A program made the translations under genes and the position numbers. A model generated the notes under the pieces. The model was not told where the DNA came from. It did no database searches and saw only the letters and a program-made list of their open reading frames with translations. Below are positions 7,480-8,899 of a stretch of DNA of 64,000 nt, one piece after another. The first letter of the stretch is position 1; each line of letters starts with the position of its first letter. This DNA comes from a virus, in the IMG/VR virus record IMGVR_UViG_3300031949_000002. One strand, given 5' to 3'.

Positions 7480-7601
7480 GTGCTCGTGGTACTGCGGAAG
7501 ATCCAAGTAGGCCGTTCCGGACTCGAACCGGAATCGTGCGGTTATCAATCCCGCGGCGCGGAAACCTCGGCCTTCAGGCCGAGGAGGAAGCGCCGCCTCC
7601 G

Positions 7602-7630
7602 TTGACTTCCATTCCGATTCGAAATACACT
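7602..7630 (+). promoter_or_regulatory. Sigma70-type promoter for tnpB
   Basis: TTGACT-17-TACACT, GTG 7 nt downstream. Confidence 0.7.
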
Positions 7631-7637
7631 GAGGTTC

Positions 7638-8822
7638 GTGAAGCTCCGCTACCGCTTCCGCTTCTACCCCACCGAGGAGCAGGAGCGCGTCCTCGCCCGC
7701 GTCTTCGGCGCGTGCCGCTACGTCTACAACTGGGGCCTCCGCCTCCGGTCCGACGCGTACAAGAACGAGAAGCTCTCGTTTACTTACGTGGATTCCAGCG
7801 CCGCGCTGACCGCGCTCAAGAAGACGCCGGAGCATGCCTGGCTCAACGAGGTCTCCAGCGTACCGACTCAGCAAGCGCTCCGACACCTCCAGACCGCCTT
7901 CGTCGCCTTCTTCGAGAAGCGCTCCAAGTACCCTGCTTTCAAGCGCAAGGCGGGCGAGCAGAGCGCGGAGTATACACGCTCCGCCTTCTCCTGGCACGCC
8001 TCGGATCGGTCGCTCGCACTCTCCGGCGTCGGCAGGCTCAAGATCCGTTGGTCCAGGATCTTCCGATCCGAGCCCACCACCGTTACGGTCAAGAGGGATA
8101 CCGCAGGTAGGTACTTCGCGACGCTCTGCCTGGACGAAGAGATCGAGAAGCTTCCGGCCATCCATCGCCCGGTCGGAATCGACCTGGGCATCACGGCTCT
8201 GGCGACCCTCTCGACCGGCGAGAAGATCGAGAATCCGCGGCACATCAAGCGCCTGGAGCGTCGGCTCACCCGCGCGCAGCGCGACCTCTCGCGGAAAAAG
8301 AAAGGCTCTCACCGGAGAGAGTTCCAGCGACTCCGGCTCGCGCGCATCTACGCGAAGCTCTCCGACGCGCGGATGGACTACCTGCACAAGATCACGACGG
8401 ACATCGTCCGGCGCTTCGACGTCGTCTCCATCGAAGACCTGAACGTTCGCGGCATGGCTAAGAACCACAGCCTTGCCCGCGCGATCAGCGACGCAGCGCT
8501 CGGACGGTTTCGCCGGATGATCGAGTATAAGTGCGCCTGGTACGGGCCGGAACTGAGGCTTGTAGACCGGTTCTACCCGTCGAGCAAGCGCTGCTTCGAC
8601 TGCGGCTACGTCCTGGAGACGCTGGACCGAGGATGCCGCGAGTGGATCTGTCCCCAGTGTGGAAAGAAGCACGACCGCGACGAGAACGCTGCAAAGAACA
8701 TTCTGGCGGCCGGACAGGCCGTGACTGCGCGTGGAGGGACGGTAAGACCGATCCGTCGTGGACGGAGCGGCGCATCCCTGCGAAGCGCGAACCAGCCTGA
8801 GAGTACGCATAAAGCCTCTTAG
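7638..8822 (+). CDS. tnpB: TnpB RNA-guided endonuclease (394 aa)
   Basis: KLRYRFRFYPT HTH; VGIDLG, IEDLNV, DRDENAAKNI RuvC motifs; CFDC/CPQC Zn finger. Confidence 0.95.
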   Translation: MKLRYRFRFYPTEEQERVLARVFGACRYVYNWGLRLRSDAYKNEKLSFTYVDSSAALTALKKTPEHAWLNEVSSVPTQQALRHLQTAFVAFFEKRSKYPAFKRKAGEQSAEYTRSAFSWHASDRSLALSGVGRLKIRWSRIFRSEPTTVTVKRDTAGRYFATLCLDEEIEKLPAIHRPVGIDLGITALATLSTGEKIENPRHIKRLERRLTRAQRDLSRKKKGSHRREFQRLRLARIYAKLSDARMDYLHKITTDIVRRFDVVSIEDLNVRGMAKNHSLARAISDAALGRFRRMIEYKCAWYGPELRLVDRFYPSSKRCFDCGYVLETLDRGCREWICPQCGKKHDRDENAAKNILAAGQAVTARGGTVRPIRRGRSGASLRSANQPESTHKAS

Positions 8823-8899
8823 GAATCCTCGCCCTTTAGGGCGGGGAGGATGTCAAAAACCGCGGGCTCTACCTTTGAGCTAACGGCCCGGGAGACAGC

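Follow-up and report, generated by a model that had tools for sequence, protein, structure and literature searches.

A TnpB-only transposable element lies inside the anticodon of a tRNA gene in what looks like the genome of a giant soil phage. The window analysed here, a stretch of 64,000 nucleotides from IMG/VR virus record IMGVR_UViG_3300031949_000002, carries the element at 7546-8856. To judge by the letters on either side of it, the element interrupts a tRNA-Ile(UAU) gene between tRNA positions 34 and 35 and leaves that gene inactive. As a whole, the event is very probably explained by a non-autonomous TnpB element that was moved by TnpA acting in trans, is tolerated by the phage and would be maintained through TnpB acting as a homing drive. 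This is ordinary transposon behaviour in an unusual place, and its mechanism is not new.

Origin and integrity of the sequence

The proteins of the window belong to a 341-kb contig, and the runs containing the window are soil metagenomes. IS elements are repeat-like and related copies occur as loose ends in the same soil samples, so one could suspect that a transposon contig had been chimerically joined into the tRNA gene during assembly. However, an independent Logan assembly (run X1) holds a 90.9-kb contig identical to the window over 6600-9600; being free of differences, it indicates that the stretch is not an assembler chimera. In run X2, which comes from a different soil study, identical 151-nt contigs lie at 7421-7571 and 9113-9263. 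The first of them spans the interval from tRNA-Arg to the left junction and ends 26 nt inside the element, against a bridging rule of 31 nt. With junctions that fit the rules of IS605 elements as described below, the probability of an assembly artefact is negligible. A replication-strand bias read from GC skew was dropped, since phage skew mainly follows transcription.

A split tRNA-Ile(UAU) gene

The two parts of the gene flank the element, both on the minus strand:

8857-8889, minus strand: 5' part of tRNA-Ile(UAU), positions 1-34 (33 nt), with the acceptor, D arm, 5' anticodon stem and U32 U33 U34
7508-7545, minus strand: 3' part of tRNA-Ile(UAU), positions 35-73 (38 nt), from A35 U36 A37 A38 onward, with the 3' anticodon stem, variable loop, T arm, acceptor and discriminator A, and no encoded CCA

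Joining 7545 to 8857 yields a 71-nt cloverleaf that ARAGORN calls tRNA-Ile(tat), its 7-nt loop reading TTTATAA (UUUAUAA). An earlier sequence-only reading of this DNA had described the same restored loop, UU-UAU-AA, upon removal of 7546-8856, and ARAGORN bears it out on the joined flanks. The rejoined tRNA contains 20 stem pairs, one of them G-U, with no counted mismatch, on a par with its intact neighbours; its position 27:43 is a C-A pair. As flanks of 33 and 38 nt make up a canonical cloverleaf, and do so on the same strand as every other tRNA of the array, chance is not a credible explanation. Stems as good as those of the neighbours imply either that the insertion is recent or that the halves have been maintained.

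Run in intron mode, ARAGORN independently returned the same outer ends (7507-8889). Its actual call there, a 1309-nt 'intron' with a tRNA-Gln(ttg), was rejected as incompatible with the ends of the insertion element, and wherever else in the window it called an 'intron', it had joined neighbouring tRNAs.

We compared the rejoined tRNA with the bacterial isoleucine identity set (A73, C4-G69, U12-A23, C29-G41, A35, U36, A37, A38, G16, U20 and U21; PMC9976931). It carries the whole set except G16 and U21, both of which are replaced by A. Bacterial tRNA-Ile(UAU), known from Mycoplasma mobile and lactic acid bacteria (PMC3575796), has the same UAU, A37 and A38, and like it the tRNA from the window would be a TilS-independent reader of AUA. 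It differs in being phage-encoded and interrupted.

The E. coli isoleucyl-tRNA synthetase charges UAU tRNAs poorly (PMC3575796), which means that this tRNA may not have been very useful even before the insertion. One could go further and suppose that the gene was already dead or useless, for example unchargeable by the host IleRS, and that the insertion was a neutral hit in junk. Bacterial-type IleRS can indeed reject UAU (PMC3575796), and the two absent identity nucleotides and the C-A pair would fit. We nevertheless consider this very unlikely: the cloverleaf matches its neighbours in quality, the main Ile identity pairs are all there, and the array contains no other reader of AUA, its two CAT tRNAs looking like initiator and elongator Met.

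The TnpB element

The element reads on the plus strand, and its parts are as follows:

7546-8856, plus strand: TnpB-only element of IS200/IS605 type (IS1341-like), 1311 bp
7638-8822, plus strand: tnpB, 394 aa, GTG start
7565-7584, plus strand: left-end subterminal hairpin, CCTCGGCC-TTCA-GGCCGAGG, predicted by DNA folding, with compensating changes in relatives
8826-8847, plus strand: right-end subterminal hairpin, predicted by DNA folding, with covariation (consensus-alignment columns 214-234)
7602-7630, plus strand: promoter-like site TTGACT-17-TACACT, 7 nt upstream of the tnpB GTG, its TTGACT kept in relatives
8698-8856, plus strand: predicted omega/reRNA scaffold, from the 3' end of tnpB to the right end, by consensus folding of 7 sequences
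7542-7545, plus strand: TTAT target tetranucleotide, left cleavage site and presumed TAM, 19 nt 5' of the foot of the left hairpin
8853-8856, plus strand: TCAA right cleavage site, the last four bases of the element, shared with relatives and identical to the IS608 tetranucleotide
8857-8872, plus strand: right flank readable as a 16-nt guide, AAACCGCGGGCTCTAC, following the published TnpB mechanism

The assignment to TnpB and the IS200/IS605 family, already made in the sequence-only reading, is confirmed by three Pfam domains, HTH_OrfB_IS605, OrfB_IS605 and Cas12f1-like_TNB (1e-30, 3e-24 and 1e-19), and by a full-length match to the ISDra2 TnpB structures 8exa and 8h1j (E 1e-73). In the translation the RuvC motifs GIDLG, IEDLN and HDRDEN and a CxxC...CxxC zinc finger are all intact; the D-E-D catalytic residues are accompanied by HTH, RuvC and zinc-ribbon TNB domains. 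Both ends of the element carry subterminal imperfect palindromes, and neither terminal inverted repeats nor a target duplication is present.

The -10-like hexamer ends 7 nt before the GTG, so the tnpB mRNA would have little or no leader. This tight spacing (7630-7640 on the plus strand of the window) recurs in relatives.

At the other end, the last ~160 nt of the element share a conserved predicted fold with six relatives, in which 11 pairs are changed on both sides. Such a fold is as expected for an omegaRNA scaffold, and we predict this function for it. Rfam gave only sub-threshold matches in the region, to HgcC (27.3 bits, cut-off 50) and Transposase-2.

No TnpA is encoded in the element: there are only 92 nt between the left end and tnpB, without room for a second gene. 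A crude scan of the window for the HUH...Y motif of Y1 HUH transposases also returned nothing. As tnpA is missing from all eight of the relatives considered next as well, the element fits the non-autonomous IS1341 type and not the autonomous IS605.

Fixing the ends of the element

The ends were fixed by comparison with the elements of eight relatives whose TnpB is 71-74% identical (loci L020, L021, L105, L106, L107, L108, L110 and L111). At 1311 bp, the element of the window falls in the size range of the relatives (1305-1317 bp). Its right end reads ...GGATGTCAA| and that of every relative ...GGAGGATGTCAA, so that TCAA is found in nine of nine elements. The base that follows is C, T, C, A, G, A, T and G in the respective relatives, and unrelated sequence comes after it. 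Related soil contigs, too, have loose ends that depart from the window sequence at 8855/8856. The invariant right end and these loose ends together place the right end at 8856, directly after TCAA. It follows that the 5' part of the tRNA ends in ...CGCGGTTT and that position 34 is T wherever the left end may lie. The break between positions 34 and 35 and the anticodon UAU, both proposed earlier, are in this way upheld. A GAU anticodon, which would arise as GAT from shifting both ends by +1, is ruled out by the relatives, every one of which has TCAA as the last bases of its right end.

On the left, TTAT| lies 19 nt before the hairpin, matching the spacing of IS608, and the proposed limits of 7546-8856 stand on this side too. 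The 7-nt anticodon loop arises only with the cut TTAT|; other joins of the flanks gave 8-nt or odd loops in ARAGORN. With this cut the joined flanks form a tRNA with no base duplicated or missing, as for an insertion 3' of the tetranucleotide. Read together, both junctions conform to the IS605 rules to the base.

At the equivalent offset, the left-flank tetranucleotide is TCAT in six of the eight relatives (L020, L105, L107, L108, L110 and L111). L021 has CTAT there, and L106 has a degenerate left end. By this alignment TTAT is off-consensus for the clade, in which TCAT is usual.

The same ends bear on whether the element could be removed at the RNA level, as an intron or IStron or through joining of a split tRNA in trans, leaving a working tRNA. 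Group I introns and IStrons are known from tRNA anticodon loops and genes. Here, however, tnpB and the tRNA are encoded on opposite strands, both ends have the canonical IS605 form, and a search of 7450-8950 for intron families gave no match even with E allowed up to 1. We therefore regard RNA-level removal as highly improbable. Membership in the group I introns or IStrons, which would call for a ribozyme core on the tRNA strand, was likewise rejected on the antisense orientation of tnpB and the lack of any matching intron family.

In most respects the element resembles ISDra2 and IS608. Its TnpB is homologous over the full length to that of ISDra2 (structures 8EXA, 8H1J and 8BF8), with the same three Pfam domains; it shares the subterminal hairpins, the lack of inverted repeats and of target duplication, and a guide that would come from the right flank. 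As in IS608, 19 nt separate the left cleavage site from the left hairpin on its 3' side, and TCAA closes the element 9-10 nt after the right hairpin (PMC3201880). In contrast to both, it is without tnpA, being of the non-autonomous IS1341 type, and sits in a phage tRNA gene. The targets also differ: TTAT here and TCAT in the clade, versus TTAC for IS608 and TTGAT for ISDra2.

Search for empty sites, relatives and other split tRNAs

Empty-site alleles, whose discovery in relatives or reads the sequence-only reading had named as a check, did not turn up in three contig collections or in the contigs of two soil runs. The exact empty-site junction is absent from the viral, metagenome and genome contig collections, a result that excludes only a near-identical intact allele. 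Logan contigs of the two soil runs contain, over 6600-9600, neither a joint of 7545 to 8857 nor a circle junction. Since contigs drop rare variants, a joint missing from two runs is not evidence of absence.

The neighbouring 1002-aa ORF was used to look for syntenic phage relatives; its best match is 37% identical and has no tRNA array adjoining. The pre-insertion state presented here is accordingly a reconstruction from the flanks, with neither an observed empty allele nor a close phage relative behind it.

Cultured phages contain only distant matches to tnpB. TnpB relatives in the viral, metagenome and genome contig collections are at most 52% identical, and their ends are without the end motifs of the clade. 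In five close relatives, joining the flanks gives a sequence without a tRNA. Across 138 other loci, about 130 of which are TnpB relatives, ARAGORN in intron mode found no split tRNA, yet it detected that of the window. Insertion into tRNA genes is not a habit of this TnpB clade. In the literature searched, we found no published TnpB element inside a tRNA anticodon loop.

The closest relative of the TnpB (L020, 73% identity) lies on a 177-kb contig of NCBI assembly GCA_041693915.1, in a phage-like neighbourhood with HNH_3, DUF6011 and methyltransferase genes, which suggests that members of this TnpB clade move between large phages. Another relative, L021, has two different TnpB genes back to back, at 20-1348 (minus strand) and 1501-2688 (plus strand). 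With its right end the first directly adjoins the left flank of the second, and the two may be nested or adjacent IS insertions.

The tRNA array and AUA decoding

The interrupted gene belongs to an array of about 44 tRNA genes, of which ARAGORN reports ~40 on the minus strand over 6558-21669 and Rfam adds three. The members that bear on the decoding of isoleucine and methionine codons are:

20440-20511, array member: intact tRNA-Ile(GAT), called by ARAGORN; the separate, intact Ile(GAU) gene of the sequence-only reading
12462-12536, array member: CAT tRNA, initiator-like, with GGG/CCC in the anticodon stem
16493-16563, minus strand: second CAT tRNA, Met-like, with the Met determinant U4-A69, found by Rfam

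Both CAT tRNAs look like Met tRNAs, one initiator and one elongator, so the interrupted gene was probably the sole AUA reader of the array. ATA codons amount to 2.4 per 1000 across 48 long ORFs and are absent from ORFs with GC3 of at least 0.75. As AUA is almost unused, losing the tRNA was probably cheap, and there would be little for an on/off switch of the tRNA to act on. It seems that a tRNA set private to a phage can lose its AUA reader without evident cost.

This codon usage weighs against an idea that excision in trans could turn the tRNA back on, so that phage or host would control the decoding of AUA by letting the element leave precisely and insert again. Excision of IS200/IS605 elements leaves the donor site without gain or loss (PMC3201880), and the tRNA halves are undecayed, as such a reversible switch would have it. 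But the transposase that would have to excise the element is missing from the element itself and, by the crude motif scan, from the window; the empty allele is absent from the contigs of both runs and all three collections; and none of the 138 other loci has a split tRNA. We consider a switch very improbable, and the observations agree better with a selfish insertion that the phage tolerates than with a device for regulation.

Four tRNAs of the array, all on the minus strand, were missed or miscalled by ARAGORN at default settings and found by Rfam: the Met-like CAT tRNA at 16493-16563, a Thr(TGT) at 16568-16638, and, with anticodons read by eye, a probable Asp(GTC) at 21358-21431 and a probable Phe(GAA) at 21007-21083. 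A permuted 'tmRNA*' reported by ARAGORN at 20322-20758 (minus strand) is probably a false positive, overlapping five tRNA genes and finding no support in Rfam. A bona fide tmRNA (144.9 bits) lies at 50216-50565.

A proposed route of insertion and drive

We now propose how the element came to its place and may be kept there. An element with tnpB and its guide RNA alone would have entered 3' of TTAT in the anticodon loop, with no target duplication, by single-strand 'peel-and-paste' transposition catalysed by a TnpA Y1 transposase in trans. The tRNA gene would thereby have been cut between positions 34 and 35 and inactivated. The phage would tolerate this insertion because AUA is hardly used and tRNA-Ile(GAU) is retained.

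TnpB elements of the IS605 group take their guide from the right flank and their TAM from the left, which allows homing and retention (PMC10055086). By the same logic, a complex of TnpB and omegaRNA would here carry the 16 nt to the right of the element as its guide, AAACCGCGGGCUCUAC. The flank in question, 8857-8872, is complementary to about positions 19-34 of the tRNA. Up to 3 mismatches, the 16-nt guide has no second match within the window, and it has no match among 185,579 species genomes. Guide and left-flank tetranucleotide, the latter as TAM, would together match the vacant site, that is the intact tRNA gene. Phage genome copies with an intact or regained tRNA gene would then be cut, and recombination would copy the element back into them. 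The outcome would be a gene drive acting on the phage genomes that are present in many copies in a cell.

TnpB gene drive in multicopy replicons has been published (10.1101/2025.02.20.638934). The present case resembles the retention and drive described for IS605 elements (Meers et al., PMC10055086; Mears et al., 10.1101/2025.02.20.638934) in that TAM and right-flank guide would match a vacant site, and in that a multicopy replicon, here the replicating phage genomes, helps the element reach fixation. It differs in that we infer the drive, that the TAM is off-consensus, and that the replicon is a giant phage and not a chromosome or plasmid. Since TTAT departs from the TCAT of the clade, TnpB may not cut the empty site.

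The homing proposed in the sequence-only reading thus keeps its base in the element, its ends and the split UAU gene, but loses ground with a TTAT that departs from the TCAT of six relatives in eight and the CTAT of one, and with the missing empty allele. The guide and TAM logic is that of the generic published TnpB mechanism; it appears plausible here, although the off-consensus TAM and the missing transposase weaken it a little.

Two aspects of this arrangement may prove useful. The guide of this TnpB would be committed to 16 nt of a tRNA gene beside the anticodon, a small and highly structured target that is already known, on a multicopy giant-phage genome, the kind of setting in which TnpB gene drives are now studied. 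The ends and the reconstructed empty site being exact to the base, TAM tolerance (TTAT versus TCAT) and homing between phages are directly testable.

Selfish nucleases in the tRNA array

Beyond its own replicon, the element could act as a homing cassette between co-infecting giant phages, and more broadly, anticodon loops could be recurrent landing pads for IS200/IS605 elements; we hold these extensions to be doubtful. As a homing cassette, it would cut the intact tRNA-Ile(UAU) gene of IS-free relatives, and neighbouring tRNA genes would be dragged along by gene conversion. The landing pad is speculation: the anticodon arm would form a hairpin in single-stranded DNA, and its antisense loop TT-N-N, the complement of A38, A37 and the anticodon, would present a tetranucleotide of the type targeted by IS200/IS605.

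If true, the homing cassette would be an RNA-guided counterpart of SegB of phage T4. SegB and other free-standing homing endonucleases (PMC2330249) are likewise selfish nuclease genes in a phage tRNA cluster, and like them the element could cleave the allele that lacks the nuclease in a co-infecting relative, carrying flanking tRNA genes along. The context is similar too, as the array of the window also has GIY-YIG, HNH and IscB genes. However, SegB is protein-guided, lies between tRNA genes and breaks none, whereas the element of the window would be RNA-guided and destroys a tRNA gene. As in T4 and T5, selfish nucleases have gathered in the tRNA array.

Two genes for HNH endonucleases and a homing-endonuclease-like GIY-YIG/NUMOD3 gene lie among the tRNAs at 5895-6515, 6644-7342 and 14262-15074, all on the minus strand; the ORF at 6644-7342 runs into tRNA-Arg(CCG) at 7283-7357. 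An IscB gene (RRXRR and HNH, 433 aa) lies within 16974-18564 on the minus strand together with its HEARO omegaRNA, which is upstream of it at 18324-18564 (Rfam, 150.7 bits). This locus sits between tRNA-Thr(GGT) and tRNA-Val(GAC), with no obvious tRNA split. A second TnpB is encoded at 54693-55955 on the plus strand (421 aa); it has the same three Pfam domains and is 28.6% identical to the first.
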